Source: Bacillota bacterium
Lineage (GTDB): Bacteria > Bacillota > Clostridia > Christensenellales > CAG-138
Direction: 5' to 3'
Assembly (NCBI GenBank): GCA_016286445.1
Contig: JAEESS010000007.1
Span: 3,318 to 67,317 of the forward strand
DNA length: 64,000 nt
Below are positions 23,112 through 46,539 of this stretch, piece by piece; positions within the stretch are counted from its first letter, which is position 1, and each line of letters begins with the position of its first letter. The translations under genes were made by a program, and so were the position numbers. The notes below the pieces were generated by a model, which worked only from the letters and a program-made list of their open reading frames with translations, made no database searches and had not been told where the DNA came from.

Positions 23112-23138
23112 TGGCGGAAGCGCCGACAAAAAGATAAT

Positions 23139-24032: not shown

Positions 24033-24057
24033 TATACAGCAATGATCAGATATTGAA

Positions 24058-27185: not shown

Positions 27186-27212
27186 TTGAAAGGTTCAAGG
27201 GAGAATAAGACT

Positions 27213-28433: not shown

Positions 28434-28467
28434 CGGCAGAACACTACGTAAGAATCTGGGTGAGAAA

Positions 28468-29244: not shown

Positions 29245-29291
29245 ACAAAGGTTGGTATGAACAAACGTTCGGATTATTACAGGAAACACAA

Positions 29292-30476
29292 ATGTTGGAT
29301 CATGTTTTGATTATAAAGTTACAGGCATATAACAGCTTATCATCATCCAATATGCGCATGCTGGCCATGATGAAAGGGCTTAATGAACTGGGGTATAAAA
29401 TGGACTTGCTTTGTACCCCGGTCAGTGCTGTTACGCATATTAATGATATGAGCGACTATGCGTTTCTGAAGGGCGTCAATATCATTACAACTTCACAAAA
29501 CAAGGCGTATGAGAGCTTGGTATCCTCTCCGAAGGGAACAAAAAAGGGACTGAAGCAAAAGCTGCTTCCCGTACTCAGAAAGGTGTATCATAAGTTATCC
29601 CTTTATACAAGCTCATCAACAATAGCAAAGAAGCTGACGTTGGATATTCTTCCGCGAAAAGAATATCAGTATGTCATTTCCGTTTCTGATCCGAAGATTT
29701 CTCAAATTGCGTTAAGAGCGCTGCTAAAGGATGGTTTAAGAAGTGAAAAGGTGATCGAATACTGGGGGGATCCGATGACCGGTGACATTACACAGAGGGC
29801 AATTTATCCGGAGTTTATCATCAAAAGAGAAGAAAGAAAATACCTTAAGATCGCGGACAGAATTGTATACACATCCCCGTTTACTTTGGAGATGGAGCAG
29901 AAAACGCATCCGATGTATGCGGATAAAATGCTTTTTGTTCCGACAGCGAACGCATTCCGAAAGATATACCCGGATACGAAGAACGATTTGTTTACGGTCG
30001 GGTATTACGGCGCTTATCATTCCGGGATCAGGAATATTATGCCGCTTTACAATGCGTTTTCTTCTTTGATAGGGATTGCAAAGCTCAATCTGGTCGGCGA
30101 CTCGGATTTGCAATTACAGCCTACTGAGAATATCATGATCCGCCCGCGGGGAGTTGTAAAGGACTTGGAAGAACAAACCGATTTGTTTGTTTGCGTTTTG
30201 AACAGTTCAGGGACGCAGATCCCCGGAAAGCTCTACCATAATGCAGCAACAAACCGTCCGATCCTTGTCATTCTTGACGGGGAGCGGCAAGATGAAATGC
30301 GAGAGTACTTGGAATCGTTTGATCGGTTTATCCTTTGCGGTAATTCGGAGACGGAAATCGCATCCGCAATCAAATCTGTTATGAACGACAAGAGGGTATG
30401 GGAGCCGTGTAAATTGTTGGAGCCCAAAACAATTGCTGCAAAAATCATCGATTTTGATGGGGAAACAAAGGAATGA
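29292..30476 (+). CDS. Putative GT-B fold glycosyltransferase
   Basis: MLDHVLIIKLQAYNSLSSSNMRMLAMMKGL... and C-terminal ...GTQIPGKLYHNAATNRPILVILDG.... Start uncertain (TTG 29241 or ATG 29292). Confidence 0.45.
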   Translation: MLDHVLIIKLQAYNSLSSSNMRMLAMMKGLNELGYKMDLLCTPVSAVTHINDMSDYAFLKGVNIITTSQNKAYESLVSSPKGTKKGLKQKLLPVLRKVYHKLSLYTSSSTIAKKLTLDILPRKEYQYVISVSDPKISQIALRALLKDGLRSEKVIEYWGDPMTGDITQRAIYPEFIIKREERKYLKIADRIVYTSPFTLEMEQKTHPMYADKMLFVPTANAFRKIYPDTKNDLFTVGYYGAYHSGIRNIMPLYNAFSSLIGIAKLNLVGDSDLQLQPTENIMIRPRGVVKDLEEQTDLFVCVLNSSGTQIPGKLYHNAATNRPILVILDGERQDEMREYLESFDRFILCGNSETEIASAIKSVMNDKRVWEPCKLLEPKTIAAKIIDFDGETKE

Positions 30477-31615
30477 TCAAAAAGCTATGTGTTATTTCGG
30501 CATATTATCCGTCTGAAAACGATCCGCATTATGCGTTTGTCGGAACGTTGATCAGTGCAATCGCCGATCAGGGAATTGAATGTCATGTGATTTCTCCGGT
30601 TTCCAATATGGAGAAACAACACAGAGCGGAATCCAGAATTGAGACAACGCTGAACGGCGCAAAAATCCATGTGTATTGTCCGTCCTATACGGTTTTTCCG
30701 AGTAGAAGGATTTTTGGCTATGAGACATATCGTCTTACCGTTTCATCGAAGCAGCGTGCGATTCGTAAAACCTTTGAAAGGTATATTCATGATTGCGATG
30801 CAATCTATTCCCATTTCATCGACTCCGGGGTGCATGCGGCGCTGTTGTCTGAAAAAACAGGGGTTCCGGCGTTTGTTGCCATCGGTGAGAGCAATCTTAA
30901 CAATAAACAGCTGAACTATTCACTGTATATGAAGGAACTGCAGAGATATATTAAAGGCGTGGTGTCTGTATCTTCTGAGCTAAAGAAAGATGCGCTTGAT
31001 ATCGGCATATTCTCTGCAGAGACGCCGATCGAAGTCTTTCCGAACAGCATCGATACGGATCTTTTCAAGCCGATGGATAAAGCCGAACAGCGAAAGAATC
31101 TGGGGTTATCCGATACGGATTTTGTCGTTTCCTTTGTAGGCGGTTTTATCGAGCGAAAGGGCTTTGATAAGGTACAGCAGATTATCAGACGCCATCCGGA
31201 TTGGAAGTGTATTCTGATCGGAGGCGGGGATATCCCCATAACCGTTCCCAAAGAACAAATTGCTTTCGCCGGAAGGATCAGTCACGACCGGATACCGGCA
31301 TATCTTTGTGCATCCGACGTATTTGTTCTTCCTACAAAGGCGGAAGGCTGCTGCAATGCGATCGTCGAGGCGATGGGGTGCGGGTTGCCGATCGTTTCCT
31401 CCGATAGAGGGTTTAATTACGACATTTTGAATCGCGAGTATGCGATTCTGGTCGATCCGGAGAATATTGACGAAATTGAACAAGCGTTGATGACATATGC
31501 ATCTGATCAGCAGCTCCGAAAGGAACATGCGGACAAAAGCTTGCAGGCGGGCAAGCTCTTGTCGATCGAAAACCGTGCAAACGGAATTGTTCGTTTTATG
31601 GAGAAGAATCTATGA
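30473..31615 (+). CDS. Glycosyltransferase family 4
   Basis: ...FVGGFIERKGFDKV...LPTKAEGCCNAIVEAMGCGLPIVSS... (EX7E region). Confidence 0.85.
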   Translation: MIKKLCVISAYYPSENDPHYAFVGTLISAIADQGIECHVISPVSNMEKQHRAESRIETTLNGAKIHVYCPSYTVFPSRRIFGYETYRLTVSSKQRAIRKTFERYIHDCDAIYSHFIDSGVHAALLSEKTGVPAFVAIGESNLNNKQLNYSLYMKELQRYIKGVVSVSSELKKDALDIGIFSAETPIEVFPNSIDTDLFKPMDKAEQRKNLGLSDTDFVVSFVGGFIERKGFDKVQQIIRRHPDWKCILIGGGDIPITVPKEQIAFAGRISHDRIPAYLCASDVFVLPTKAEGCCNAIVEAMGCGLPIVSSDRGFNYDILNREYAILVDPENIDEIEQALMTYASDQQLRKEHADKSLQAGKLLSIENRANGIVRFMEKNL

Positions 31616-32859
31616 ACCGTTCTCTGGGATTACGGATAAATTGTCAAATACTAAGCAAAGTATTGTTTGCTTTTTATATTGTATATACAAACGTCCTAAG
31701 CTATTCGCTTTTCTTTGTACGAGGATTGTCTTCTGCGTTACTGATCGGCGCAATTGCATTGCAATTGCTGCATGAAAGATTTAGGATCCGTTTGGATAGA
31801 AGCCTGATTGCATTGCTGGTTTTTGCAGCATATTTGTTATTGTCGGGTTTGCTTGTCGCCTATGATTACAGCAAGACATTTAGTACGGTCCTATCATTTT
31901 TGGAGTATTTGGGTGTTTTTTATTTGGTGGTTTATTATATTCAATCTGACAACAAACCGGATTTTCCTATGTATGTTTTTATCATACAAGCGATCGCAGC
32001 AACACTCATCTTGATTCTGAATGGCGTCGGGGTGAAAAGAGTCAGCATTGCTGAAAACGTAAATGTAAATACCATCGGTGTAACACTTACATTTGCGATA
32101 GGGTTTGTTTTATATTTATTGATTGCAAGGAAAAACAGCGCTGTTAAGTGGGGAATCAGCATTACAGCGATTGCAGTTTTGCTTATTGGTGTATTATTGA
32201 CTGTTTCCAAGAAAGCAATTATCGGCGGCGCTGCTTTGATTATACTGTGGACGGTTCTCTGCTATCGTTATACGTTTGCACGAATTAAGTGGTTTTGGAA
32301 ACTCTTTCTTGTTGCTGTACTAGTATTCTCCGGAATACTCATATATAGGTGGTACACTTCAAGATACGCGCTTCAGATGGAAGTGTTTATGTTTCGAATG
32401 AGCGAGACGTATGTTGGTGACAGTGATCAGGAAAGGATAGAATTGTTTAAAGAAGGACTACTGCTTTTCCTTTCTCATCCATTCTTCGGTGTGGGATTTA
32501 ACAATGCAAGATACTATACTTCGTGGAGCACCTACACACATTGTCTGTATAGTGAAATGTTGGCATGTACGGGTATTATTGGGACGCTGATCTTTGGATA
32601 TACGCTCGTCCGACCGTGGGTGATCATCTCAAGGAAACGGGAATCATACAAACGGACAGATCTAATTCTCAATACGCGCACAAAATACTTGTTAGCGATA
32701 TTTGTCGTTTTCTTTGCAATCAGCTTTACAACGATTGCGTTTTATGCACAAAACCTGATGTATATTGTGGCGGTCGTCGCAGGATATGCGATCACAACGC
32801 CGCTTGCGAGAGAGGAAGAAAGGAATGCAGCAGATGAAAAGATTACGCTCGTTTGTTAA
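31612..32859 (+). CDS. wzy: O-antigen polymerase/ligase-like membrane protein (Wzy candidate)
   Basis: 415 aa with 10 or more hydrophobic segments and a larger loop ...RMSETYVGDSDQERIELFKEG.... Lies among GT genes with a separate Wzx. No strict motif exists for Wzy. Confidence 0.65.
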   Translation: MNRSLGLRINCQILSKVLFAFYIVYTNVLSYSLFFVRGLSSALLIGAIALQLLHERFRIRLDRSLIALLVFAAYLLLSGLLVAYDYSKTFSTVLSFLEYLGVFYLVVYYIQSDNKPDFPMYVFIIQAIAATLILILNGVGVKRVSIAENVNVNTIGVTLTFAIGFVLYLLIARKNSAVKWGISITAIAVLLIGVLLTVSKKAIIGGAALIILWTVLCYRYTFARIKWFWKLFLVAVLVFSGILIYRWYTSRYALQMEVFMFRMSETYVGDSDQERIELFKEGLLLFLSHPFFGVGFNNARYYTSWSTYTHCLYSEMLACTGIIGTLIFGYTLVRPWVIISRKRESYKRTDLILNTRTKYLLAIFVVFFAISFTTIAFYAQNLMYIVAVVAGYAITTPLAREEERNAADEKITLVC

Positions 32860-33736
32860 ATATGCTATGAAAAAAGGCTTTTTCAATTGCCTCGGTGATG
32901 AACCGTATCTAAAGCTGTTTTATTGGATCTATATGGGAAAAAGATTGAACCTCAAGAACCCGAAACGGTTTACCGAGAAGCTGCAGTGGTTGAAGATTCA
33001 TGACCGAAAACCGTATTACAGTACGATGGTTGACAAGTATGCGGCAAAAGAGTACGTTGCGGGAATCATTGGGCAGGAGTATATTATCCCGACGTACGGC
33101 GTTTGGGATTCGCCGAGAGACATCGATTTTGATGCACTCCCCGATCAATTCGTCTTGAAGACGACACATGATTCCGGAACGGTCAGAATCATTGATAAAT
33201 CAAAAGGCTTTGATAAAGAAGCTCTGATCGATTATTTCGAAGGGAGACAGAAAAGGAATCTGGGTATTATTGCAAGGGAGTGGCCGTATAAGCAGGTAAA
33301 ACCGCGCATTATTGCGGAACAGTATCTAGAAGGGCCAGAAACGGCATCGGGAGAGCATGACGTCAGAGATTATAAGTTCTTTTGTTTTAATGGAATCGTC
33401 AAGTGTATGAAGGTCGATTACAACAGATTTACCTGTCATCATACAAATTATTACGGTAGGAATAAAGAACGGCTGCCTTTTTGCGAAAGGCGTCTTCCGA
33501 GTGACGACAGTCAAACGATCGAACTACCCGTTCATTTTGATGAAATGGTGTCCCTTGCTGAAATGCTTGCAAAGGATATACCTTTCTTAAGAGCCGATTT
33601 TTATGAGGTCAATGACAAGGTTTATTTCGGGGAACTGACATTTTTCCCGGCTTCCGGAGCAAGCAGTCCCTTTGAACCGGATGAATGGGATTATACGCTT
33701 GGAAGCTGGATCAAGCTTCCGAATGAAGAACAATAA
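32825..33736 (+). CDS. TupA-like ATP-grasp protein
   Basis: NLKNPKRFTEKLQWLKIHDRKPYYSTMVDKYAAKEYV...FVLKTTHDSG...DYKFFCFNG...RADFYEVNDKVYFGELTFFP is the characteristic ATPgrasp_TupA pattern. Confidence 0.7.
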   Translation: MQQMKRLRSFVKYAMKKGFFNCLGDEPYLKLFYWIYMGKRLNLKNPKRFTEKLQWLKIHDRKPYYSTMVDKYAAKEYVAGIIGQEYIIPTYGVWDSPRDIDFDALPDQFVLKTTHDSGTVRIIDKSKGFDKEALIDYFEGRQKRNLGIIAREWPYKQVKPRIIAEQYLEGPETASGEHDVRDYKFFCFNGIVKCMKVDYNRFTCHHTNYYGRNKERLPFCERRLPSDDSQTIELPVHFDEMVSLAEMLAKDIPFLRADFYEVNDKVYFGELTFFPASGASSPFEPDEWDYTLGSWIKLPNEEQ

Positions 33737-33748
33737 GAGGTTTATAGG

Positions 33749-34825
33749 ATGAGAGTAATGTTGCATGGAGCGGTGAATATGAGTAACTATGGAGATTACA
33801 TATTTGCCGAGTTATTCTATCAATCACTTTTGAATAATGGGGTACAAGTAGAGTTTTATACGCATCCCAAGTATGGTATAAGCAGTTATTTTCAGAAGCA
33901 TCTCGATTATAAGCCTGAAACGCGAAATTACAAAAAGCTATTACATCAATGTGATGCCTTTATTTTTTTCTCGGGCGGATATATCGCTGAACCAAGAAAA
34001 AAAGGCTTTTTGGCAGAAACACGTCATATTCATCGGTATTTGTATCCGGCTTCTTTGTTTATGAAAGCAGGAAAGCCGATTTATGTTATGGGTGTTGGAG
34101 CTGGACCGTTTGATGAAAATGCTGCATTCAGTAAAAGAGCCAGAGAGATTCTTAATTATGCGACAGTTATTACAGTCCGGAATGAAGAGTCACTGCAGTA
34201 TTGTAAAGAGTTCGGGATAAATAACGATATTCAGGTAACGGCCGATACCGCCTTGGTGATCAAAGAGTTTCTGGATCGGGAAAAACAGGATGTACCGAGA
34301 TTTGAAACAGAAAACGGAAAGAAGATGCTTCTGTTCCATATCGACAGCAATGCGGAAGTGACGGCAAAATTGAAGGAGATCGTTGTTCCGGCAACGATAC
34401 GCTTTTTGAAAGCGCACCCCGATTATCAGCTGTATCTGGCTGCTGACGGGATAAAGCGTGATTCGCACTATCAGGAATATGAAACGATATTTGCGGGATG
34501 CGATCCGATTACTTTGAAATATGATGATCCGTGGAAATTGACGCGACAGATTGAGCGCGCGGATCTGATCATCACGACAAAGCTGCATGTCGGCATCGTT
34601 GGCTCTGCGCTGGGCAGATCGGTCGTTTCGTTCCCGTTCGTTCCCAATAAAACATTACGTTTTTATAAGCAAATCGGCGAAGCAGACAGATGCGTCCCGC
34701 TGAAAGAAATCACAACGGAAAAAGCTTATCAAATGCTTGAAGCATATAAGGATCGGATGGTTACTGTGCCGCAGGAATTGATCGATAAGGCCAAGCTGAA
34801 TTTGGAGTTGCTTCCCAAAGAATAG
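33749..34825 (+). CDS. Polysaccharide pyruvyl transferase
   Basis: MRVMLHGAVNMSNYGDYIFAELF...FFSGGYI...ITTKLHVGIVGSALGRSVV (PS_pyruv_trans-like). Confidence 0.7.
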   Translation: MRVMLHGAVNMSNYGDYIFAELFYQSLLNNGVQVEFYTHPKYGISSYFQKHLDYKPETRNYKKLLHQCDAFIFFSGGYIAEPRKKGFLAETRHIHRYLYPASLFMKAGKPIYVMGVGAGPFDENAAFSKRAREILNYATVITVRNEESLQYCKEFGINNDIQVTADTALVIKEFLDREKQDVPRFETENGKKMLLFHIDSNAEVTAKLKEIVVPATIRFLKAHPDYQLYLAADGIKRDSHYQEYETIFAGCDPITLKYDDPWKLTRQIERADLIITTKLHVGIVGSALGRSVVSFPFVPNKTLRFYKQIGEADRCVPLKEITTEKAYQMLEAYKDRMVTVPQELIDKAKLNLELLPKE

Positions 34826-34847
34826 TTGATCAAAGGTCGCTATTGAA

Positions 34848-36383
34848 ATGAGAAAAAAGAAAGCACTTATAAATACGATTTTTTCGATGCTGTTGGAAGT
34901 GATCACGGTTGTTGCCGGGTTTATCCTTCCCAGATTGTTCATCGGAACGTTTGGATCGGAAGTCAACGGGTTGGTGTCTTCGATAACAAGTTTTATCGGT
35001 TACATCACGCTTCTTCAATCCGGCGTCGGAACGGTCGCCAAGGCTGCCATGTACAAGCCTCTGGCAAAGAAGGATCATGACAAGCTTTGCGTTATCGCAA
35101 AAACCGTAGAATCCTTTTTCCGGAAGATCGCATTTATTACCATCGCATATATAGCCGTTCTCGCAGGCCTGTTTCCGACGCTGATCGCGCCGGACACGGG
35201 ATCGTTTTTGTATACGGCTTCATTGGTGGTGATCATAGGCGTTAGCACCGCAGCGCAGTATTTCTTTGGCATTACGCACCAAATGCTGCTGGAGGCGGAT
35301 CAAAACTCCTATGTCTATTCAATCCTGCAGATTGCGACAGTCATCGTCAACACGGCGGTGTCCGTAGTTTTGATCAAAGCCGGTTGCTCGGTTCAGATCG
35401 TGAAACTGGGCAGTGCTGCTATCTTTGTATTGCGTCCGCTGCTGCTCAGCATCTACACCAAGAGGAAATATAAGCTTTACGGCAAATATGAGGTTGATAA
35501 TTCGCTGATCAAGCAACGCTGGGACGGCTTTGCGCAGGCGATAGCATATTTCATTCATTCAAAGACCGATATTTTTGTGCTGACGCTGTTTGCCAGATTC
35601 AGCCCAAATGTTTCATTGAGCCTGGTTTCCGTTTACAGCGTTTATCACTTGGTCACGACCGGTTTGACGTCATTTATCCGTGCGATTGAACGAGCAGTTA
35701 CGTCGGCACTCGGCAATATCATTGCATTGGGCGAGCGAGATACCCTTGTCAAGACATTTCAGGCATATAACAATTTCATGCATATTCTGTGTACGACGGT
35801 GTTTGCGACCGCAAGCATAACGGTGTTCAAGTTTGTCGGTATCTATGTCAAAAACATTACCGATGTGGAATATGTGCAATATGCATTCGGTTATATCATT
35901 ATTGCAGCCGAATATCTGTTTTGTTTGCGGTTACCGTACACCAGCCTCATCAATGCGGCAGGAAAGTTCAAAGAGACAAGAACCTCGGCAATCGTAGAAG
36001 CAGTCTCGAACATTGCTGTTTCTGTGATACTGGTATCGAGATTCGGGTTGATCGGCGTAGCGATCGGCACGTTTGTTGCTATGGCATATCGAACGGTTTC
36101 CTTTATGATCTTTTTGCATAAAGACGTTATCTGCTTGAGTATCGGCACACAGATCAAGAGGTATTTGCTTTCTTTTGTGATCTACGGGGCTTTGGTTTAT
36201 GCAGCTTCACTGATCAATATTCAAATCACACACTATGTGTCATGGATTCTTTATGCGGGAATTACGTTTGCGGCGACCGGCGCGGTTACATTACTGGTCA
36301 ATCTCCTTATCATGCGAAAAGAAACTGTTGCCGTAATCAAAACGTTCATCAGACGTCTGCCCAAAAAACGGGCGGATTCTTGA
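34848..36383 (+). CDS. wzx: MOP-superfamily oligosaccharide flippase (Wzx)
   Basis: 511 aa with about 12-14 TM segments. N-terminus MRKKKALINTIFSMLLEVITVVAGFILPRLFIGTFGSEVNGL is typical of polysaccharide-biosynthesis flippases. Confidence 0.75.
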   Translation: MRKKKALINTIFSMLLEVITVVAGFILPRLFIGTFGSEVNGLVSSITSFIGYITLLQSGVGTVAKAAMYKPLAKKDHDKLCVIAKTVESFFRKIAFITIAYIAVLAGLFPTLIAPDTGSFLYTASLVVIIGVSTAAQYFFGITHQMLLEADQNSYVYSILQIATVIVNTAVSVVLIKAGCSVQIVKLGSAAIFVLRPLLLSIYTKRKYKLYGKYEVDNSLIKQRWDGFAQAIAYFIHSKTDIFVLTLFARFSPNVSLSLVSVYSVYHLVTTGLTSFIRAIERAVTSALGNIIALGERDTLVKTFQAYNNFMHILCTTVFATASITVFKFVGIYVKNITDVEYVQYAFGYIIIAAEYLFCLRLPYTSLINAAGKFKETRTSAIVEAVSNIAVSVILVSRFGLIGVAIGTFVAMAYRTVSFMIFLHKDVICLSIGTQIKRYLLSFVIYGALVYAASLINIQITHYVSWILYAGITFAATGAVTLLVNLLIMRKETVAVIKTFIRRLPKKRADS

Positions 36384-38769: not shown

Positions 38770-39849
38770 TTATGCCTTGTAGTACTCTTTATACCACTCC
38801 GCGAATCTGCGCAGACCTTCGCGGATGCCGATGGCCGGGCGGAAGCCGTAGTCGGTCTCGAGCGCGGCGCTGTCTGCATAGGTCACGGGAACGTCGCCCG
38901 GCTGCATGCCGACGAGCTCGCGGTGTCCTTCAAAGTCATAGTCTGCGGGCAGAACGCCGGCACGGACGAGTTCTTCCTGCAGCGTGGCGATGTAGTCCAG
39001 GAGGTTTTCCGGCGTGCCGCCGCCGATGTTGTAGACCGCGTAGGGAGGCAGGGGCAGCCCGTCCTCGCCGGTCGCTTTCTCCGGCGCGCCCTGCATGATG
39101 CGGATCACGCCCTCCACGATATCGTCCACATAGGTGAAGTCGCGCTTGCAGTTGCCGTAGTTGAAGATCTGGATGGTCTTTCCTGCGACCAGTTTTTGCG
39201 TTGCGGAGAAATAGAACATATCCGGACGGCCTGCGGGACCGTAAACGGTAAAGAAGCGCAGTCCCGTCGAGGGAATATTGTAGAGCTTACTGTAGCTGTG
39301 CGCCAACAGCTCATTCGACTTCTTCGTTGCCGCATAGAGGGAAACGGGATTGTCGACCTTGTCGTCGGTAGAAAACGGCACCTTCTTGTTGCCGCCGTAG
39401 ACCGAAGAGGACGAGGCATAGACCAGATGCTCCACCGGATTGTGACGGCAGGCCTCCAGGATATTGTAGAACCCGATCAGGTTCGATTCGATGTATACGT
39501 CCGGATGATCGATCGAATAGCGCACGCCCGCCTGCGCGGCAAGGTTCACGACGATTGCAGGCTTGTACTCCTGAAAGACGCGGTCGACCAGCGCTTTATC
39601 CGCAATCGAGCCCTTGACAAAGATGTGCCTGACGGGCGAAGTCTCCGCCGCCTGTGCGATCAAGGACAGGCGGTATTCTTTTAATGCGGGATCGTAGTAA
39701 TCGTTCATGTTGTCGAACGAAATGACCGTGCCGCCCTGCAGTTCTTTCAGAAGCCGCAGCACGAGAAACGCGCCGATAAAGCCCGGCGAGCCGGTGACGA
39801 GGATCGTTTTGTTGTTGAGATCAATGTGCTGTTTTCCCATTTGAGTCAC
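38770..39849 (-). CDS. NAD-dependent epimerase, UDP-glucuronate 4-epimerase type
   Basis: VTGSPGFIGAF...YASSSSVYGGNKKVPFSTDD...SLYAATKKSNELLAHSYSKLY...FFTVYGPAGRPDM closely follows the Cap1J/LpsL-type pattern. Confidence 0.8.
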   Translation of the reverse strand: MTQMGKQHIDLNNKTILVTGSPGFIGAFLVLRLLKELQGGTVISFDNMNDYYDPALKEYRLSLIAQAAETSPVRHIFVKGSIADKALVDRVFQEYKPAIVVNLAAQAGVRYSIDHPDVYIESNLIGFYNILEACRHNPVEHLVYASSSSVYGGNKKVPFSTDDKVDNPVSLYAATKKSNELLAHSYSKLYNIPSTGLRFFTVYGPAGRPDMFYFSATQKLVAGKTIQIFNYGNCKRDFTYVDDIVEGVIRIMQGAPEKATGEDGLPLPPYAVYNIGGGTPENLLDYIATLQEELVRAGVLPADYDFEGHRELVGMQPGDVPVTYADSAALETDYGFRPAIGIREGLRRFAEWYKEYYKA

Positions 39850-40583
39850 CCTTTGATTCCTTTGTATGTATTTTGTACGGTTTCGTAGCTTTCGAGATTG
39901 CCGATGTCATAGCGGCTGCCGGGCATTTCCATGCTGTACATGACGCTGTGACTGCACATCCATGCAACGAGTGAGCCCGGGGCGTCCGTACCGCAGCCGT
40001 CGGAAATGGCGTCTCGGATGCGGGCGGCGTCGGCTTTCGTGTAGAAATAAAACGGCGGCGTGCACCAGTGCGACTTCGGGCTCTCAGGTTTCTCCTCCAA
40101 AGAGAGCAGCCGTTCCTGTTCGTCGATCTCGGAGATGCCGAAGCGATGCAGCCTGTTCCCGTCCGGCTCGTAATAGCGCATCGTACAGGACGTGCCCTTT
40201 TTCAGAGCGTACCGAAGGAAGGACGTCAGCGAAAAATCCAGCAGATTATCGCCGGCAATGACCAGAAGGTCGTCGTTGAGACCCAGCTTGTCGATCGCAA
40301 ACTGAATATCGCAGACCGCGCCGAGCCGCGTTTCGTTGGTGCTTGTACCGTCGTCGACCACTGTGATCGGCAGTGTGTGCGCTTTTGCCCAAGCTTCAAA
40401 GTGCTGCGCGAACTTGTGATTTGTGATCACAATGTATTCATCAATCAATTTGACGGCGTCAATGTCCTCGATCAGCCAATCGAGGATCGTTTTTTCGCCG
40501 ACCTTCAAAAGCGGCTTCGGAAAGTTCTCCGTCAGCGGGTAAAGCCGGGTCGCGTACCCCGCGGCAAGGATCAAACACTTCAT
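39846..40583 (-). CDS. Sugar-1-phosphate nucleotidyltransferase
   Basis: MKCLILAAGYATRLYPLTENFPKPLLKVGEKTILDWLIE (G-x-G-T-R-L signature); 245 aa. Confidence 0.8.
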   Translation of the reverse strand: MKCLILAAGYATRLYPLTENFPKPLLKVGEKTILDWLIEDIDAVKLIDEYIVITNHKFAQHFEAWAKAHTLPITVVDDGTSTNETRLGAVCDIQFAIDKLGLNDDLLVIAGDNLLDFSLTSFLRYALKKGTSCTMRYYEPDGNRLHRFGISEIDEQERLLSLEEKPESPKSHWCTPPFYFYTKADAARIRDAISDGCGTDAPGSLVAWMCSHSVMYSMEMPGSRYDIGNLESYETVQNTYKGIKG

Positions 40584-40592
40584 AGCGGTACC

Positions 40593-41768
40593 TCACAGGC
40601 TTGCGCCGTCTGCACTCTCGGTGATGCGGACGGCATATTTTTCTTTCAGCTGCGGGAAATCTTTGCAATACGCTTCGCTGACTTTGCGTACGATGGATTC
40701 CTCGAATGCCGGGTCGATCAGCGCCATGCAGCAGCCCTTGAAGCCTGCGCCGCAAAACCGTCCGCCGTAGACGCCGTCGGTCTTGCGCAGGAGCTCGTAG
40801 AGCCGGATCTGCTCCGGCGCGCCGGATTCCCAGTTTTCGATGCTGCTTCGACCGGACTCGAACGACAGCCGTCCGAAGGTTTCGATGTCGCTTCTGCGCC
40901 ACGCCTCCGCACCCTGTTCGACCCGCTGAAATTCCGTATACCAGTGCTCGCAGCGCTTTGCCCACGGCTCGGGCAGTCGGTCCCTGTACCTGAGATAGAC
41001 CTCGTATGGGACGCTGCGCGCATTCGCTTCCGCAAACTTACCGTACTCCATGCCGGATAGCGCCATCAGCGCGTACACGCCCGCACGCAGCTCATCCACG
41101 CGCATATTGAACTTGGATCCCATAAGGCTGTGTTCGAGCCCGCTGAAAAAGATCGCGATCTTGTACGGCTTCATGGCGGGATCGGTCGGAATCAGTTCGA
41201 AACTGCCGTCCGCAGTGTCGAGATACAGCAGATGATCCTTTCGTCCCAAAACCTCGCAGCTTTGGTCCAGCTTGCCCACGTTGACGCCGACATAGTTTCG
41301 TTCCGCGTCAAATGCCGTGTCGATCAGCTCCTGCGGCGACAGATGGACGTCGTTGACCTTCGCAAGCGCGGAAAGGAACGCCAGCGTGACTGCCGCCGAG
41401 GACGACAGCCCGCCGATCGGAAGAGAGCCTTCAAAAACGCCGCAGACGCCGACGGTCAGAGGATGCATTTTTGCAAGCGCCCACGATGCGCCGCGCAGGT
41501 AATCTGCCCAGTCGTTTTGTCTGTTCGGCACGGCGGCGATATGCCACTGTGCGCGCTTCGGAAACTGCAGCGAAGTCAGTTCGACCACGCCGTTTTCCTT
41601 GGGACGGTAGGCAAAATGGATTCCCTGATCGATCGCAAAGCCGGTGATCTTGCCGAGATTGTGATCGGAGTGCGCACCGATCGGGCAGACCCGATAGGGG
41701 CTGAAGCTGAGCCCCTCGGGATCTTTGCCGTAGAGCTTATGGAATTGTTGTTCGCAGAGCCGGTGCAT
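40593..41768 (-). CDS. GHMP sugar-1-kinase of the galactokinase family (non-canonical, possibly uronate kinase-like)
   Basis: GHMP motif PIGGLSSSAAVTLAFLSAL. The N-terminal motif YRVCPIGAHSDHNLG replaces the canonical GRVNLIGEHTDY. Start MHRLCEQQF (CAT 41766-41768) lies 1 nt from the ugd stop. Confidence 0.8.
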   Translation of the reverse strand: MHRLCEQQFHKLYGKDPEGLSFSPYRVCPIGAHSDHNLGKITGFAIDQGIHFAYRPKENGVVELTSLQFPKRAQWHIAAVPNRQNDWADYLRGASWALAKMHPLTVGVCGVFEGSLPIGGLSSSAAVTLAFLSALAKVNDVHLSPQELIDTAFDAERNYVGVNVGKLDQSCEVLGRKDHLLYLDTADGSFELIPTDPAMKPYKIAIFFSGLEHSLMGSKFNMRVDELRAGVYALMALSGMEYGKFAEANARSVPYEVYLRYRDRLPEPWAKRCEHWYTEFQRVEQGAEAWRRSDIETFGRLSFESGRSSIENWESGAPEQIRLYELLRKTDGVYGGRFCGAGFKGCCMALIDPAFEESIVRKVSEAYCKDFPQLKEKYAVRITESADGASL

Positions 41769-41769
41769 C

Positions 41770-42993
41770 TCAATCCCTGCGGAACAGATCGCGCGTGTAG
41801 ACCTTGTCGGCAACGTCGCCGAGGATGTGCTCGTCGAAACGATTGGCAAGGATCACATCGCTTTCCCTCTTGAAGCGATCGAGATCGTTGACGACCTCCG
41901 AACGGAAGAACTCACTGCCGTTTTCCAGCGTCGGCTCGTAGATAATGATCGGGATGCCCTTCGCCTTGATGCGCTTCATGACGCCCTGGATCGCGGACGC
42001 GCGGAAGTTGTCGCTGTTCGACTTCATCGTCAGACGGTAGACGCCGACGGTGCGCGGGTTGCGTTTGATGATCTGATCCGCGATGAAGTCCTTGCGGACC
42101 GTGTTCGACTTGACGACCGCCTCGATCATCGTCTGCGGAACGTCCTTGTAGTTTGCCAAAAGCTGCTTGGTGTCCTTGGGCAGGCAGTAGCCGCCGTAGC
42201 CGAACGACGGGTTGTTGTAATGCCCGCCGATGCGCGGGTCCATGCAGACGCCGTCGATGATCATCTGCGTGTCAAGCCCCTTGGTCTGCGCGTAGGTGTC
42301 GAGCTCGTTGAAGTAGCTGACACGCACCGCAAGGTAGGTGTTCGCAAACAGCTTGATCGCCTCGGCTTCGGTGAGATGCGCAAGCAGTACCGGGATGTTC
42401 TGCGGGGCAGTACCCGCACGTTCTTCTTCGGCTCTCGCGCCTTCCAAAAGCAGGTCTGCAAACATCTGCGCTTCTTTCTTTTGCGTGTCGTCGCAGCCGA
42501 CCACGATGCGACTCGGATGCAGATTGTCGTACAGCGCCTTGGATTCGCGCAGAAACTCCGGGCTGAAAATGATGTTGTTCACACCGTACTTTTTGCGGAC
42601 GGACTCGGTATAGCCGACCGGGATCGTGGACTTGATGACCATCAGCACGTTCGGGTTGACCTTCAAAGTCCATTCGATCGCGTCCTCGACCGCGCTGGTA
42701 TCAAAGAAGTGGTTTTCGTCGTCGTAATTGGTCGGGGTGGCGATGATGACAAGCTCTGCGCTGCCGTACGCCGCCGCCTTGTCGGTGGTGGTGAAAAGGT
42801 TCAGCTTGCGAGAGCCTTCTCTTGCTTCGCGGAAGAAACGCTCGATCTCGTCGTCCTGGATCGGGCTGATGAATTGATTCAGCTTTTCGGCTTTCTTTTC
42901 GGTGGTCGTGATGGCGGTGACTTCGTGTTTCTGCGCCAGCAGAACGGCAAGGGACAGTCCCACATATCCGACGCCTGCAACGGTAATCTTCAT
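41770..42993 (-). CDS. ugd: UDP-glucose 6-dehydrogenase
   Basis: [20 protein letters not shown]...[16 protein letters not shown]...[14 protein letters not shown] (catalytic Cys). Confidence 0.9.
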
Positions 42994-43017
42994 GTCGTTT
43001 CTCCTTTGTTTGATTTT

Positions 43018-44520
43018 TTAATCTCTGCGGAACAGGTCCCGCGTATAAACCTTTTCTTCGACGTCGTCCAACGCCGTATCATAGCGGTTGGCGATGATGC
43101 AGCCGCACATCCTCTTGAACTTCTTGAGATCGTTGACGACCCGGCTTCCGAAAAACGTGCTGCCGTTTTCGAGCGTCGGCTCGTAGATCACGACCGTTGC
43201 GCCTTTCGCTTTGATGCGCTTCATAACGCCTTGGATCGAGCTTTGCCGGAAGTTGTCGGAGTTCGCCTTCATGGTGAGACGGTAGACGCCGACGACCAGC
43301 TCGCGCTGCTTTTTCTCCTGCGCTTTGTTGTAGTTTGCCGAAGCCGTATAGCTGCCCGCGATCTCCAGCACGCGGTCCGCAATAAAGTCCTTGCGCGTGC
43401 GGTTGCTCTCGACGATCGCGGTCATCATGTTCTGCGGCACATGCTGATAGTTGGCTAAAAGCTGCTTCGTGTCCTTCGGCAGGCAGTAGCCGCCGTAGCC
43501 GAACGACGGATTGTTGTAATAATCGCCGACGCGCGGATCGAGGCAGACACCCTTGATGATCGACGCGGTGGAAAGACCCTTGACCTCGGCGTAGGTATCC
43601 AGCTCGTTGAAGAACGACACGCGCAGCGCAAGGTAGGTGTTGACAAACAGCTTGGTCGCCTCGGCTTCCGTATAGCCCATGAACAGCGTTTCGATCGGGC
43701 TTTTGATCGCGCCTTGCCTGAGAAGCGCGGCAAAGGTGTGCGCGGCGTCTTCCGTGTTCGGATCGCAGCCGACAATGATGCGGGAGGGGTAAAGGTTGTC
43801 GTAGAGCGCTTTGCTTTCGCGCAAAAACTCCGGACTGAAGATGATGTTGTCCGCTTGGTACAGCTTACGCACGTGCTCCGTATAGCCGACCGGAATCGTG
43901 GACTTGATGACGATGGTGGGCTTCGTTTCCCGCTCCTTGGTGCTTTCCAGGATCAGCCGGATCACCGCTTCGACCGCCGAGCAGTCAAAGAAGTTCTGCT
44001 TGGGATCGTAGTTGGTCGGCGCGGCGATGATGATGTAATCCGCATTCCGATAGGCGCCTGCGCCGTCGGTGGTCGCGGTTAAATGCAGCGCGCGTGTGCC
44101 TGCCTGCGCTTCGGCAAGATACTGTTCGATGTATTCATCCTGGATCGGCGAGACGAAGCGGTTCAGCTTTTCGACCTTCTCGGGCACGATATCGACCGCC
44201 GTGACGTCGTTGTGCTGCGCAAGCAGAACGGCAAGCGACATACCGACATAGCCGGTTCCCGCGACCGCGATCCTGCAGGAGCGCACGGCGTGCAGTTCGT
44301 GCGGCGCGGGGCTTTCCAGCACATCGCCGATCTCAAACCGCAGCACTTCGGACAGCGCCAAAAGCTGATTGATCGAGGGTTCATAGTCCCGGTTTTCGAT
44401 ACGGGACAGCAATGCGCGGTTGATCCCGGTCGCTTTGGAAAGCTGAAGCTGCGTCATTTTCATTGCCTTGCGCCGGGCGGCGACGGTCTGCGCCAATCGC
44501 ACAGGGGACAGTTTTCGCAT
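43018..44520 (-). CDS. XRE-type HTH domain fused to UDP-glucose 6-dehydrogenase
   Basis: N-terminal about 70 aa [41 protein letters not shown] (HTH_3/XRE). A full Ugd follows: [18 protein letters not shown]...[14 protein letters not shown]. Single frame, 500 aa. Confidence 0.85.
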
Positions 44521-44578
44521 GATATTCCTCCGGACGGGACTGAGTATCCGCTTGTAATATAAGACCCGTCACTGGCAT

Positions 44579-44607
44579 ATTATAACGGATCCGATCGCGC
44601 TTTGCAA
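44579..44607 (-). promoter_or_regulatory. Sigma-A-type promoter (TTGCAA-17-TATAAT, minus strand) for the HTH-ugd operon
   Basis: Minus-strand TTGCAA (plus 44602-44607), a 17-nt spacer, then TATAAT (plus 44579-44584). Confidence 0.5.
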
Positions 44608-44813
44608 CAGGATGTGACGGTTTTTCATCAATTATATAGATTTTAATGCAGGATGCGGGGATATTTTGTTATGAATAATAACATATCATGCGCAACACAG
44701 CAAATTGGGAAGGATTTGCCGGAACGATGCGGTTCGGCTGCGCCTGCGAACAAAGGAAGGTGCGCGGCGTGTGGACGGGGATACGGAACTTGTGCTTTTC
44801 AGAAGACCGTGAT

Positions 44814-44865
44814 ACAATGTAACAAACATACCGGGTAGATTTTGCCGCGCATAACAATGTAACAA
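44814..44865 (+). repeat. Direct repeat ACAATGTAACAA x2, starts 40 bp apart
   Basis: Identical 12-mers at 44814-44825 and 44854-44865 in the divergent intergenic region. Each contains the TGT-N-ACA half-palindrome. Confidence 0.7.
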
Positions 44866-44892: not shown

Positions 44893-46539
44893 ATGGAAGA
44901 GCTTTTTGAAGTAAAGGAGCCGCCGAAAAAGAAGAAGAAAAAGAAATCCGGAAGGACTTTGCTGATCGTTCTGGGCGGCATTTTGCTTGTGCTGGGCGTC
45001 GCTGCCTTTTTCGGGTATCGGTATGTCAACAGGATCCTGAAGCGTCCGGAGACGATGTTCGATCGCGAAACGGAAACGCCGATCCCGGAGAAAACGCCGA
45101 TAGCGCCTGCGTTCGAGATCCCTGTGGAGGTGCCGGACAGGGATGATTCCTCTGCGGAAGCTTCCGATCCGTTCGGGATCGAGCCGCAGACGACGGAACA
45201 GTCGGAGCGTTCGGAGGAGACGCCTGCCGATTCCGACAGTGTTGCATACAATGGGATTCTGAACGTCATGCTGATGGGGATCGACGCCTATGAGGATGGC
45301 AGGACGACGAGCGGAACGATGCCGCATACCGACAGCATGATGGTGATCACGGTGAATTTCGATCAGGATACGGTGGACGTTATTACGCTGCCGCGCGACA
45401 CGTTTACGACTGTACCGGGGTATTCGGGCTTTTATAAGCTGAACGGCGTGTTTAATGTGGGACTCGGCGGCAAGTTCAGCACGACCGGAAAAGCAGACGA
45501 CCTTGCGGACGGATTCAAGCTGGTATGCCGCACGGCGGAGAAATGGCTCGGCGGGATCTCCATTCCGTATTATTACGGCGTGGACTTTCAGGCGGTGATT
45601 GATATCGTCGATGCGATCGGCGGGATCGACTATGATGTGGATCAACAGTTCCGGTCGATGAACCGCAGACAGAGCTATCACGTCGGCATGCAGCATCTCG
45701 ACGGCGATGCGGTCATGGGATATTTGCGTATCAGAAACTCGGCGGACGGACTTGACAGCTCCCGCACGGCAAGACAGCGCAAAATGATGGTGGCAATCTT
45801 TAAGAAACTGAAGAACGAAGGAAAGCTTTCGCAGATCCCGGCTTTGATTTCGGCGGCAAACAGCGGGATATACACGAATACTTCCTTGGGACAAACGGCG
45901 GCGCTGGTCAACTATGCGGCAAAGCTGGATTCGGACAATATCCGTACAAGAGCGATGTACGGCGATATCGGCGATATCGAAGCGTATTGGAGATTCGCCT
46001 ATGTGAATCAGCAGAATCGCCTCGATATCATTAGCGAAGTATACGGCATCGAAGCTAAACCCGTCGGGTTCTGCACCAGACAGTACGAACGATGGCTGGG
46101 CCGGATCGGCTTTTTGACCATAAAGTATCTGCATCAGGTTGAAAAGGTCCTGCAGACGGTTCAGGAGAAGAAGGACGCAGGGGAATCGTTTACGGATGAG
46201 CAGATCGCGCTGTATGCCGCTTGTTATAACGACTATATCGCGCTGCATAACGTGTATGATACCGATTTTGCGGCGCTTGCCGCGGAATATGCCGCGGCCC
46301 CGTGGCGGGAGAAGCTGAATGAACAGAAGACGCTGACAACAGAGCAGGAGCAGAAAAACACCGAGATCAGCAACCGGGAAACGGAACTCTTTGCGCATAC
46401 TCAGGATCTGATGAAGAACCTGAAGAAATCGACCGAGGATCTTGTGCACTCGATCAAATGTCGGAATTGCTCCTGGCGGTTGGCGGATAGATGGTATGAA
46501 GATAAGGACATAAACGAAGTATTCGTGAACTTCGGTTAA
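44893..46539 (+). CDS. LCP (LytR-CpsA-Psr) family phosphotransferase, copy 2
   Basis: Lys-rich N-terminus plus TM, then LNVMLMGIDAYEDG...HTDSMMVITVNFDQDTVDVITLPRD...YYYGVDFQAVIDIVDAIGGIDYDV...RTARQRKMMVAIFKKLK. Paralog of 16590..18131. Confidence 0.85.
   Translation: MEELFEVKEPPKKKKKKKSGRTLLIVLGGILLVLGVAAFFGYRYVNRILKRPETMFDRETETPIPEKTPIAPAFEIPVEVPDRDDSSAEASDPFGIEPQTTEQSERSEETPADSDSVAYNGILNVMLMGIDAYEDGRTTSGTMPHTDSMMVITVNFDQDTVDVITLPRDTFTTVPGYSGFYKLNGVFNVGLGGKFSTTGKADDLADGFKLVCRTAEKWLGGISIPYYYGVDFQAVIDIVDAIGGIDYDVDQQFRSMNRRQSYHVGMQHLDGDAVMGYLRIRNSADGLDSSRTARQRKMMVAIFKKLKNEGKLSQIPALISAANSGIYTNTSLGQTAALVNYAAKLDSDNIRTRAMYGDIGDIEAYWRFAYVNQQNRLDIISEVYGIEAKPVGFCTRQYERWLGRIGFLTIKYLHQVEKVLQTVQEKKDAGESFTDEQIALYAACYNDYIALHNVYDTDFAALAAEYAAAPWREKLNEQKTLTTEQEQKNTEISNRETELFAHTQDLMKNLKKSTEDLVHSIKCRNCSWRLADRWYEDKDINEVFVNFG

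Follow-up and report, generated by a model that had tools for sequence, protein, structure and literature searches.

The locus described here raises the question of whether one protein can serve both as an enzyme of nucleotide-sugar synthesis and as the regulator of the operon that encodes it. Within the window, the whole 64,000-nucleotide stretch of Bacillota DNA that was analysed, a single ORF with its start codon at an ATG at 44520 (read from the sequence) joins an XRE-type HTH to a complete UDP-glucose 6-dehydrogenase (Ugd). This arrangement, recognised in the first-pass annotation, was borne out by the ORF call and the Pfam domains, and the HTH peptide quoted there was found in the same ORF. 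The gene and its parts are as follows.

43018..44520, minus strand, HTH-Ugd fusion gene, 500 aa plus stop (ORF call; Pfam HTH_3 and three Ugd domains)
44527..44531, minus strand, ribosome-binding site GGAGG, 6 nt before the ATG of the HTH-Ugd gene (read directly)
44317..44520, minus strand, XRE/Cro-C1 HTH, aa 1–68, recognition helix aa 33–42 (Pfam HTH_3, 2.3e-10)
44275..44316, minus strand, variable linker, aa 69–82 (low identity, high dN/dS, low pLDDT)
43021..44274, minus strand, complete UDP-glucose 6-dehydrogenase module, aa 83–500 (match to K. pneumoniae Ugd)

The HTH_3 profile (PF01381) matched aa 14–64 with 40.8 bits against a cutoff of 23. The UDPG_MGDP_dh N-terminal, central and C-terminal domains together span aa 83–489, with scores of 111.8 (PF03721), 86.9 (PF00984) and 41.7 bits (PF03720), each above its cutoff, and the NCBIfam model for nucleotide sugar dehydrogenases (TIGR03026) gave 301 bits, its cutoff being 189.8. 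Both the Rossmann motif (GTGYVG) and the motif holding the catalytic cysteine (GGYCLPKD) were seen intact, as originally described. The linker does join the HTH to the Ugd, but is about 14 aa long (aa 69–82) and not about 20.

A fusion of this kind could be produced artificially if an HTH gene and a ugd gene were two genes that an error of sequencing or assembly had joined by removing a stop codon or shifting the frame. The comparative data already refute this explanation, and its probability is considered negligible. The identical 500-aa protein is present on 9 independent contigs from different samples, the HTH plus Ugd architecture is common to at least 120 protein clusters, and one uninterrupted ORF covers aa 1–500 in 75 of 80 species-representative genomes, which contradicts the separate ORFs that the first-pass annotation had allowed for. 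In addition, the family consensus (xYRIAVAG) has Arg or Lys where Ugd has its start Met, and an internal ribosome-binding site or start is absent from the fused ORF.

HTH-Ugd proteins are frequent among Clostridia of the rumen and gut. Every one of the 120 homologues listed, at 78–100% identity, carries PF01381 and the Ugd domains. Carriers include Ruminococcus flavefaciens, Lachnospiraceae, Oscillospiraceae, Erysipelotrichaceae and others, and among them are the cultured R. flavefaciens SAb67 and YL228, Hominifimenecus microfluidus and Lachnospiraceae FE2018. A search of cluster representatives with the full protein was uninformative on distribution because the fused family is hidden within plain-Ugd clusters; its only yield was a handful of divergent fused proteins (P0137, P0169 and P0268). 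Searching proteins with just the HTH–linker segment was likewise uninformative, giving 4 short fragments out of 7 candidates. Among the papers that literature searches returned, none describes an HTH/XRE-Ugd fusion in its title or the opening lines of its abstract; the fusion is widespread in gut and rumen Firmicutes and, as far as this literature indicates, unstudied.

Both functional parts of the protein appear to be maintained. Across the family, dN/dS was 0.27 for the HTH, 0.15 for the Ugd and 0.71 for the linker, values which indicate purifying selection on the HTH and the Ugd and near-neutral evolution of the linker. Mean family identity was 89% for the Ugd domain, the most conserved part of the fused protein, 62% for the HTH and 18% for the linker. 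In the AF2 model, the HTH consists of helices at aa 6–19, 24–31, 35–42, 50–60 and 64–67 (pLDDT 84–94), and pLDDT falls below 50 at aa 72–77 of the linker. A five-helix Cro/C1 fold is predicted with high confidence, and a flexible linker joins it to the Ugd. The model is that of a monomer (pTM 0.55). The closest solved relative of the HTH is the N-terminal domain of the P22 c2 repressor (E=7e-6), with which it shares the five-helix fold.

Residues 82–500 match solved Ugds with E-values from 5e-144 to 2e-133, covering the full enzyme of K. pneumoniae (3PID/3PHL, E=5e-144) and S. pyogenes HasB (1DLI). Like these enzymes, HTH-Ugd has Rossmann, central and UDP-binding domains and the catalytic motifs. 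It differs from the solved Ugds in its 82-aa N-terminal HTH and linker, all PDB matches beginning at query aa 75–83, and from the solved bacterial Ugds in about 14 extra residues inserted at aa 387–404. The family motifs GxGYVG, PEFLRE, KLxxNxxLA and GGxCxxKD are all found in the fused Ugd, and Y91, T208, E231, E235, K290, N294, C346, K349 and D350 are invariant in 60 family members. The catalytic residues were mapped onto S. pyogenes residue numbers, and the fused Ugd keeps the Tyr equivalent to Tyr71 of E. coli Ugd, the target of the BY-kinase. With these invariant residues, a dN/dS of 0.15 and its position as usually the sole Ugd of the operon, the Ugd domain is predicted, at the level of sequence, to be catalytically competent. 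Against the E. coli-type Ugd equivalog (NF011631 / PRK15057; cutoff 757 bits), the fused copy scored 527.5 bits and the plain copy described below 541 bits. Because this cutoff was missed, it is from the solved-Ugd matches and the adjoining UDP-GlcA-epimerase-like gene that we infer UDP-Glc to be the substrate.

The fusion heads a minus-strand operon whose remaining genes, in order of transcription, are listed below.

41770..42993, minus strand, plain Ugd paralog, 407 aa (ORF, Pfam, BLASTP)
40593..41768, minus strand, GalK-like GHMP sugar kinase, 391 aa from the ATG at 41768 (Pfam GalKase_gal_bdg and GHMP_kinases_N/C)
39846..40583, minus strand, sugar-1-phosphate nucleotidylyltransferase (Pfam NTP_transferase, 1.2e-28)
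38770..39849, minus strand, UDP-glucuronate 4-epimerase-like SDR, last gene of the operon (Pfam Epimerase)

The first-pass annotation had placed HTH-Ugd at the head of an operon and suggested that it couples metabolite status to transcription of the capsule genes. The first part holds, but the five genes of the operon (HTH-Ugd, Ugd, GalK-like kinase, NTP-transferase and UDP-GlcA-4-epimerase-like SDR) are nucleotide-sugar genes, and 'the capsule genes' are not among them; within the window, the operon and the EPS cluster are convergent. The epimerase-like SDR matches PDB 5U4Q at 1e-103 and the B. cereus UDP-GlcA 4-epimerase (6ZL6) at 9e-36. The second Ugd, 24 nt downstream of the fusion, has its own AGGAG ribosome-binding site, and the by-eye estimate of roughly 60% shared residues agrees with the BLASTP result of 60% identity over 430 columns. 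The accompanying idea, that a redundant paralog frees the fused copy for regulation, is not supported because just 7 of the 80 related loci have a tandem plain Ugd; the catalytic residues of the fused Ugd are moreover invariant. Among the related loci, the most frequent downstream partner of HTH-Ugd is a UDP-GlcA-4-epimerase-like gene, and in most of them the fused gene is the sole Ugd with this gene adjoining. The pair of GalK-like kinase and NTP-transferase genes recurs in about 20 loci, and in some genomes the HTH-Ugd gene stands alone with its predicted operators.

Upstream of the fused gene, a 17-bp palindrome, TGTyry-N5-ryrACA, was identified, with PWM sites in 74 of 81 loci; its occurrence at HTH-Ugd promoters is new in this analysis. 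Strict palindromes numbered 83 in 21 kb of upstream sequence (3.9/kb), compared with 0.055/kb in the remaining 782 kb of the loci; dinucleotide shuffles gave 1.06 ± 1.04 matches. The spacing is strict: a spacer of 5 gave 83 matches, other spacers from 2 to 9 gave 1–4 each, and spacers 4 and 6 gave 1 each. Overall, 123 of 151 PWM matches fall within the 260-nt upstream regions, with site centres at +26 to +39 and at −74 to −142 (peak −100 to −104) relative to the predicted TSS. Seven of the 81 loci have no predicted site and 32 have one only. The predicted operator is conserved at fixed promoter positions in most species. Plain-Ugd promoters served as a very small negative control, and neither of the two usable loci has a site upstream of its Ugd gene. 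In metagenome contigs, 2 of the first 120 matches to the exact operator pattern lie 20–63 nt upstream of HTH-Ugd genes; the other matches listed are scattered chance occurrences, mostly in non-gut environmental samples, and no further recurrent target gene was present among those listed, a weakly informative result. Rex- and CRP-type sites are 16 bp long (TGTTAA-N4-TTAACA or TGTGA-N6-TCACA), and the 17-bp 6-5-6 spacing rules out a Rex or CRP identity for the motif.

Sequence changes in the palindrome follow changes in the HTH at residue 36, a position in the recognition helix (aa 33–42). Gly or Thr at this residue accompanies TGTC half-sites in 11 of 11 loci, against 7 of 57 loci otherwise (p=2e-8), and Ala accompanies the half-site TGTTAT. 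At equal Ugd divergence, half-site similarity is 0.55–0.59 in pairs that share residue 36 and 0.12–0.24 in pairs that do not. This covariation is only partly phylogeny-corrected, and mutual information is similar at many HTH columns. From the conserved positions and the covariation between residue 36 and the half-site, the HTH is predicted to bind the 17-bp palindrome.

The promoter region of the fused gene in the window contains the following predicted elements.

44667..44683, no strand assigned, predicted operator TGTTATGAATAATAACA, a perfect 6-5-6 palindrome centred about −103 from the predicted TSS
44579..44607, minus strand, sigma-70-like promoter TTGCAA-17-TATAAT (10/12; promoter scan, consensus match only)

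The predicted TSS lies at about 44572, and related loci have equivalent promoters at an equal distance from the ATG. The palindrome scores 17.8 bits; no other PWM site in the 64-kb window reaches 10 bits, the next best scoring 9.3. It occupies the canonical distal position of the family. As this sole operator-like site is upstream of the fused gene, with none upstream of the EPS genes, the earlier suggestion that the capsule genes are regulated finds no support in the window. The proximal operator is absent, leaving the distal site alone, and the sites of the closest relatives are eroded, with the distal site only in one (L003), a weak site in another (L004) and none in a third (L005). Within 372 nt, the gene's strand carries seven further TGTYRY half-sites, one of them overlapping the −35 hexamer. 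A site at −103 could not by itself repress through occlusion, and with only the distal operator left, control in this organism may be weaker or altered. Because the proximal operator is missing and the sites of the closest relatives are eroded, regulation in the window's organism is the least certain part of the proposal. An operator candidate picked by eye, TTATAATAT-N16-ATATTACAA, overlapping the −10, was dropped as it is not conserved in relatives. A leader RNA hairpin at 44533–44570 was not significant (folding z-score −0.41), and an Rfam scan of the whole 64-kb window matched no family.

On balance, HTH-Ugd is probably a bifunctional trigger enzyme which binds the palindrome in its own promoter and autoregulates the UDP-glucuronate/UDP-galacturonate operon that it heads. 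The core of the first-pass proposal, an enzyme that is also a transcription factor, has gained indirect comparative support from HTH selection, the positioned palindrome and the covariation; its capsule-gene target and its appeal to paralog redundancy find no support. The fusion, its conservation, the intact catalytic residues and the conservation, positions and covariation of the palindrome are observed; we infer the DNA binding by this HTH, the enzyme activity, the sign of regulation, the looping and the ligand response. The Ugd body would dimerise like its closest solved relative, the K. pneumoniae enzyme, which is a dimer (PMC9927302), and would present two HTHs to two half-sites with centres 11 bp apart. 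A typical member would have one operator in the transcribed leader (+26 to +39) and one or two around −100, a layout suggestive of repression, to which DNA looping between sites some 130 bp apart may contribute. Affinity for DNA may depend on whether UDP-Glc, UDP-GlcA or NAD(H) occupies the active site of the Ugd. The complete version, in which a working Ugd represses itself through two or three phased operators and looping and is switched by UDP-Glc, UDP-GlcA or NAD(H), as the first trigger enzyme of nucleotide-sugar metabolism, is put forward tentatively.

It could instead be supposed that the fused Ugd is an inactive ligand sensor and that the tandem plain paralog supplies the activity. The paralog 24 nt downstream in the window invites this view; P0137, a divergent metagenomic singleton in which an HTH is joined to a Ugd whose catalytic motifs have degraded, indicates that such an end-state can exist, and BzdR is a precedent for an inactive enzyme-derived sensor (PMC3602430). 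Family-wide invariance of the catalytic residues is difficult to reconcile with a lost activity, however, as is a Ugd domain more conserved than the HTH (89% versus 62%; dN/dS 0.15), whose dN/dS is 0.05–0.11 even within the paralog-bearing clade. With the tandem copy in 7 of 80 loci and the fused gene mostly the sole Ugd beside an epimerase, a sensor without activity is considered very unlikely.

A different objection concerns the palindrome, which might serve some other, unlinked transcription factor as its operator or be a structural element of the DNA, with the HTH of the fusion in another role such as protein–protein contact or non-specific nucleoid association. Although the loci with one site or none and the superficial likeness of the motif to TGT...ACA operators (Rex, CRP) leave room for this, the motif accompanies the fused gene across several Firmicutes families at fixed positions, keeps a strict spacer of 5 unlike the 16-bp sites, tracks residue 36 of the fused HTH and is missing from the two plain-Ugd promoters, which makes a separate factor unlikely. 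The same protein and operator might also act in activation, or autoregulation might have been lost in the window's organism, where the circuit may be decaying or rewired. Retention of the distal site alone, the one weak site or none in the closest relatives, and the extra half-sites, including that across the −35 hexamer, are in keeping with such a change; the HTH of this clade nevertheless remains under purifying selection (dN/dS 0.13–0.21), and a perfect palindrome is kept exactly at the canonical distal position. Activation or local loss is accordingly regarded as improbable, and the bifunctional trigger enzyme is retained as the preferred reading.

Enzymes fused to repressors are known, as in BirA, NadR, PutA and archaeal RbkR, which serve the metabolism of vitamins, cofactors or amino acids (PMC5397151) and belong with the trigger enzymes of Commichau & Stulke 2008, as cited there. 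The prediction is that HTH-Ugd, in the manner of these proteins, recognises a palindrome at the promoter of the genes of its pathway, with the ligand site of the enzyme as the presumed sensor. Unlike them, it has an unrelated enzyme (UDPG_MGDP_dh family), and its pathway is nucleotide-sugar and polysaccharide precursor synthesis; the DNA-binding domains of BirA (winged helix) and PutA (ribbon-helix-helix) are also of other types. The order of its parts, an N-terminal XRE-type HTH, a flexible linker and a C-terminal enzyme fold, is that of BzdR, whose shikimate-kinase-derived sensor is without enzyme activity (PMC3602430). In contrast to BzdR, HTH-Ugd retains all catalytic residues under strong conservation, a BzdR-type degradation being seen in the singleton P0137 only; it is closer to the bifunctional 'missing link' chimera built in the BzdR study (PMC3602430) than to BzdR itself. 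With respect to P22 c2, dimerisation of HTH-Ugd would presumably occur through the Ugd body and not a C-terminal repressor domain. The P22 c2 repressor binds a pseudo-palindromic operator as a dimer, and the predicted HTH-Ugd operator is unrelated to it in sequence.

A Ugd-based trigger enzyme would extend the fused enzyme-repressor principle to the supply of cell-surface polysaccharide precursors. Synthesis of UDP-GlcA uses up UDP-Glc and two NAD+, a cost that makes direct feedback on it plausible, and many rumen and gut Firmicutes would gain such metabolite-to-transcription feedback on uronic-acid precursor supply. If responsive to ligand, HTH-Ugd would be a ready-made UDP-sugar-responsive transcription factor, a natural UDP-sugar biosensor and a natural counterpart of the engineered BzdR 'missing link'. 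The family offers a sharply defined predicted operator together with a testable specificity residue (36).

The window contains exactly what the first-pass annotation had described, an XRE-type helix-turn-helix (HTH) and a UDP-glucose dehydrogenase (Ugd) within one ORF (HTH-Ugd) with a plain Ugd in tandem; the 24-nt interval was found as stated, and the roughly 60% of residues said to be shared corresponds to 60% identity between the Ugd modules of the two copies. Kinase, nucleotidylyltransferase and SDR genes are closely packed 3' of both Ugd genes on the same strand.

Features of the HTH-Ugd operon and its upstream region (window coordinates)
43018..44520, minus strand: HTH-Ugd fusion gene, 500 aa, ATG start with GGAGG ahead
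41770..42993, minus strand: plain Ugd, 407 aa, own AGGAG, 24 nt past the stop of the fused gene
ATG at 41768, minus strand: GalK-like GHMP kinase (Pfam); the kinase and nucleotidylyltransferase pair spans 39846-41768
within 39846-41768, minus strand: sugar-1-phosphate nucleotidylyltransferase (Pfam)
downstream in the operon, minus strand: SDR, epimerase-like (Pfam)
44607-44579, minus strand: predicted promoter TTGCAA-17-TATAAT (promoter scan)
44893-46539, plus strand: LCP (LytR-CpsA-Psr) gene, divergent from the HTH-Ugd operon

In Pfam, HTH_3 was matched at aa 14-64 of HTH-Ugd (40.8 bits, cutoff 23) and three UDP-glucose/GDP-mannose dehydrogenase domains at aa 83-489. The protein also exceeds the NCBIfam TIGR03026 cutoff (301 vs 189.8 bits), no dedicated model for the fusion was found in NCBIfam, and databases label it merely 'nucleotide sugar dehydrogenase' or 'UDPglucose 6-dehydrogenase'. 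The possibility of a frameshift at the junction had been raised, and the fusion proved genuine. The same 500-aa protein, 100% identical, is called on nine contigs of different samples with like neighbours. A survey of one genome per GTDB species, in which an alignment of the first 100 residues served as query, gave 385 confirmed stretches; in the best 80 of these a single frame runs from the HTH through the junction into the beginning of the Rossmann fold, with one unbroken ORF matching aa 1-500 in 75 (59-88% identity). PF01381 and the Ugd domains occur together in at least 120 homologues, that is, in all 120 among the matches listed (78-100% identity, ~500 aa). Most carriers belong to Clostridia of the rumen and gut, among them Ruminococcus flavefaciens SAb67 and YL228, many Lachnospiraceae, Oscillospiraceae, Christensenella, Roseburia, Agathobacter and Hominifimenecus microfluidus, with Erysipelotrichaceae as further carriers. 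Because the family consensus (xYRIAVAG) has Arg/Lys where the ancestral Ugd had its start Met, and no internal ribosome binding site or start was found in the window's gene, HTH-Ugd is an obligate fusion.

Both halves of the protein are conserved, the enzyme most strongly. Mean identity in the 120-member alignment is 89% for Ugd, 62% for the HTH and 18% for the linker, with dN/dS (Nei-Gojobori) of 0.15, 0.27 and 0.71, respectively; between the window and its closest relatives the Ugd value is 0.05-0.11 and the HTH value 0.13-0.21. The GxGYVG motif and residues T208, E231, E235, K290, N294, C346 and D350, taken as the counterparts of the streptococcal enzyme's catalytic residues, do not vary across 60 HTH-Ugd sequences. 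Klebsiella pneumoniae Ugd (3PID/3PHL) matches aa 82-500 (E=5e-144) and Streptococcus pyogenes HasB (1DLI) the Ugd part (2e-133), and an N-terminal extension of this kind is absent from all solved Ugd matches. The AlphaFold2 model shows a five-helix Cro/C1 domain (pLDDT 84-94), to which the P22 c2 repressor N-domain is the nearest solved HTH, disorder over aa 72-77 and a Rossmann domain predicted with confidence; the central domain was poorly modelled because the alignment was shallow.

The plain Ugd had been proposed as a redundant copy that frees the fused one for regulation, a proposal that the related loci do not bear out. Among the loci of the best 80 of the 385 stretches, a plain Ugd lies directly 3' of the fused gene in only seven (L003, L004, L005, L053, L064, L067 and L076). 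An epimerase-like gene comes after HTH-Ugd in ~45, with a GHMP kinase and nucleotidylyltransferase between or just before in ~20 of these; the HTH-Ugd gene of R. flavefaciens SAb67 and that of H. microfluidus stand alone. The fused copy is therefore normally the sole Ugd of its unit and, given also the strong constraint on its catalytic residues, a sensor-only role for its Ugd domain appears unlikely. In one divergent protein, P0137 (673-2115 of L083, a single 2.9-kb metagenome contig), an HTH is joined to a Ugd of the other type, with 63% identity to the plain paralog of the window. This Ugd has degenerate catalytic motifs (GDFCPPED present, IKSTIP replaced, a 10-aa deletion), and no operator was found upstream of the P0137 gene on L083; P0137 could be a derivative that only senses, or the product of a poor assembly. 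Between the window and L003-L005, identity is 96-98% for the plain Ugd, 84-88% for the fused gene and 80-83% for the kinase and nucleotidylyltransferase; the plain Ugd is either unusually conserved or recently exchanged.

The SDR matches PDB 5U4Q (1e-103) and the Bacillus cereus UDP-glucuronate 4-epimerase (9e-36), and the GHMP kinase is only distantly akin to solved galactokinases (1e-34). The kinase and nucleotidylyltransferase, which lie inside this Ugd/epimerase operon and recur beside HTH-Ugd in ~20 related loci, may together serve salvage, converting a free uronic acid or another sugar into the corresponding UDP-sugar.

When 81 upstream regions were read side by side, an inverted repeat such as TGTTGCTATCAGCAACA was found to recur upstream of HTH-Ugd. 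Under a generic definition (TGT...ACA, 6-N-6 layout, at least 5/6 complementary pairs), a spacer of 5 gave 83 matches in 21 kb of upstream sequence (3.9 per kb; 58/81 loci) and 43 in the remaining 782 kb of those loci (0.055 per kb). Other spacers within 2-9 nt gave 1-4 matches apiece, and 200 dinucleotide-preserving shuffles of the upstream regions gave 1.06 +/- 1.04 (maximum 5). With a symmetrised PWM and a 10-bit threshold, sites were present in 74/81 loci, 123 of 151 matches falling within the 260-nt upstream regions; seven loci have no site, 32 have one, 35 two and seven three. Counted from sigma-70 promoters matching at least 10/12 positions, site centres form two sharp groups, a proximal one in the leader (+26 to +39) and a distal one at -74 to -142, peaking at -100 to -104. 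Paired distal sites are spaced by 33 bp, and the distal-to-proximal separation peaks at 130-133 bp. Such a palindrome could be read as an RNA hairpin or as a DNA site; a DNA site bound by protein is favoured, since the TGT/ACA ends do not vary and some copies lie upstream of the promoter. Rex- and CRP-type consensus sites are 16 bp, and the strict 17-bp length seen in the spacing test argues against either. At plain-Ugd promoters on related metagenomic contigs no site was found upstream of the gene in the two usable cases, a weak comparison at n=2.

The inner bases of the half-site track HTH position 36, which follows the conserved Asn-Arg where the recognition helix begins. Gly/Thr36 occurs with TGTC(G/A)T in 11/11 loci against 7/57 for other residues (Fisher p=2e-8), Ala36 with TGTTAT in 11/12 against 15/45 for Ser (p=6e-4), and Ser36 mostly with TGTTGC, in tests that ignore phylogeny and with similar mutual information in several other columns. 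As a partial control for phylogeny, locus pairs were binned by Ugd-domain identity; half-site overlap per bin was 0.39, 0.55 and 0.59 for pairs with the same residue 36 and 0.24, 0.24 and 0.12 for pairs with different residues.

Exactly one PWM site of 10 bits or more is present in the 64 kb, the perfect palindrome TGTTATGAATAATAACA at 44667-44683 (17.8 bits; runner-up 9.3). Its centre lies ~-103 from the predicted promoter, the canonical distal position, and its TGTTAT half-sites are in keeping with the Ala36 of the window's HTH. A proximal operator was absent by PWM, and the closest relatives are also eroded (L003, distal site only; L004, weak proximal; L005, none). Across the 372 nt of intergenic DNA, the minus strand (that of the fused gene) carries seven TGTYRY half-sites, one of which overlaps the -35 hexamer. 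The intergenic region with the predicted operator is common to the operon and the divergent LCP gene, just upstream of which a perfect 12-nt direct repeat, ACAATGTAACAA, occurs at 44814-44825 and 44854-44865, 40 nt apart, each copy with a TGTTAC half-site (minus strand). An LCP homologue within ~6 kb upstream of the fused gene was found in one related locus only (L005, divergent). Control of the capsule genes had been proposed, yet the only site in the window is in the fused gene's own upstream region; the PWM scan found none ahead of any EPS gene, which would support local autoregulation rather than control of the capsule locus.

In the proposed mechanism, HTH-Ugd would be an active Ugd that forms a dimer, and its two HTHs, on flexible tethers, would contact the 17-bp palindrome. 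Occupancy of the leader site would repress the gene or operon, possibly strengthened by looping to sites near -100, and the ligand state of the enzyme may modulate DNA binding. The HTH is joined directly to strand beta-1 of the NAD-binding domain. The closest solved homologue of the Ugd part is a dimer (PMC9927302), and that paper, citing Chen et al. 2011, reports conformational and oligomeric changes in UGDHs on substrate or product binding. Functionally, the trigger enzymes BirA, NadR, PutA and archaeal RbkR match HTH-Ugd, all in vitamin, cofactor or amino-acid metabolism (2017 paper, PMC5397151). BzdR is alike in architecture, with an XRE-type HTH, a linker and a shikimate-kinase-derived sensor; that sensor has lost its activity (PMC3602430), whereas the Ugd of HTH-Ugd has probably not. 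The trigger-enzyme idea is partly supported by these comparisons of sequence, sharpened to autoregulation through a defined predicted operator and shorn of paralog redundancy and capsule regulation. No description of an HTH/XRE-Ugd fusion was found in the full-text literature, judged by title and abstract opening, and HTH-Ugd appears to be a new, widespread variant of the trigger-enzyme type.

Convergent with the operon is a large EPS locus on the plus strand, at about 14.8-38.7 kb, which encodes a BY-kinase, LCP, glycosyltransferases, Wzy and a pyruvyl transferase.

Features of the EPS locus (window coordinates)
14812-16422, plus strand: 536-aa ORF, BY-kinase-type P-loop (AAA_31/ParA, aa 83-253) and CpsB/CapC PHP-type phosphotyrosine phosphatase domain (aa 314-505)
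16590-18131, plus strand: LCP (LytR-CpsA-Psr) gene
27186-28433: third nucleotide-sugar dehydrogenase, within the low-GC island

The low-GC island (22000-36000; 41-46% GC vs ~52-62% in the flanks) spans the glycosyltransferase, Wzy and pyruvyl-transferase section, which points to a serotype-specific cassette subject to horizontal exchange. Separate cps genes usually encode the kinase and the phosphatase, and a fusion such as the 536-aa ORF would be unusual. A Tyr that presumably aligns with Tyr71, the BY-kinase target of E. coli Ugd, is retained in both Ugd copies.
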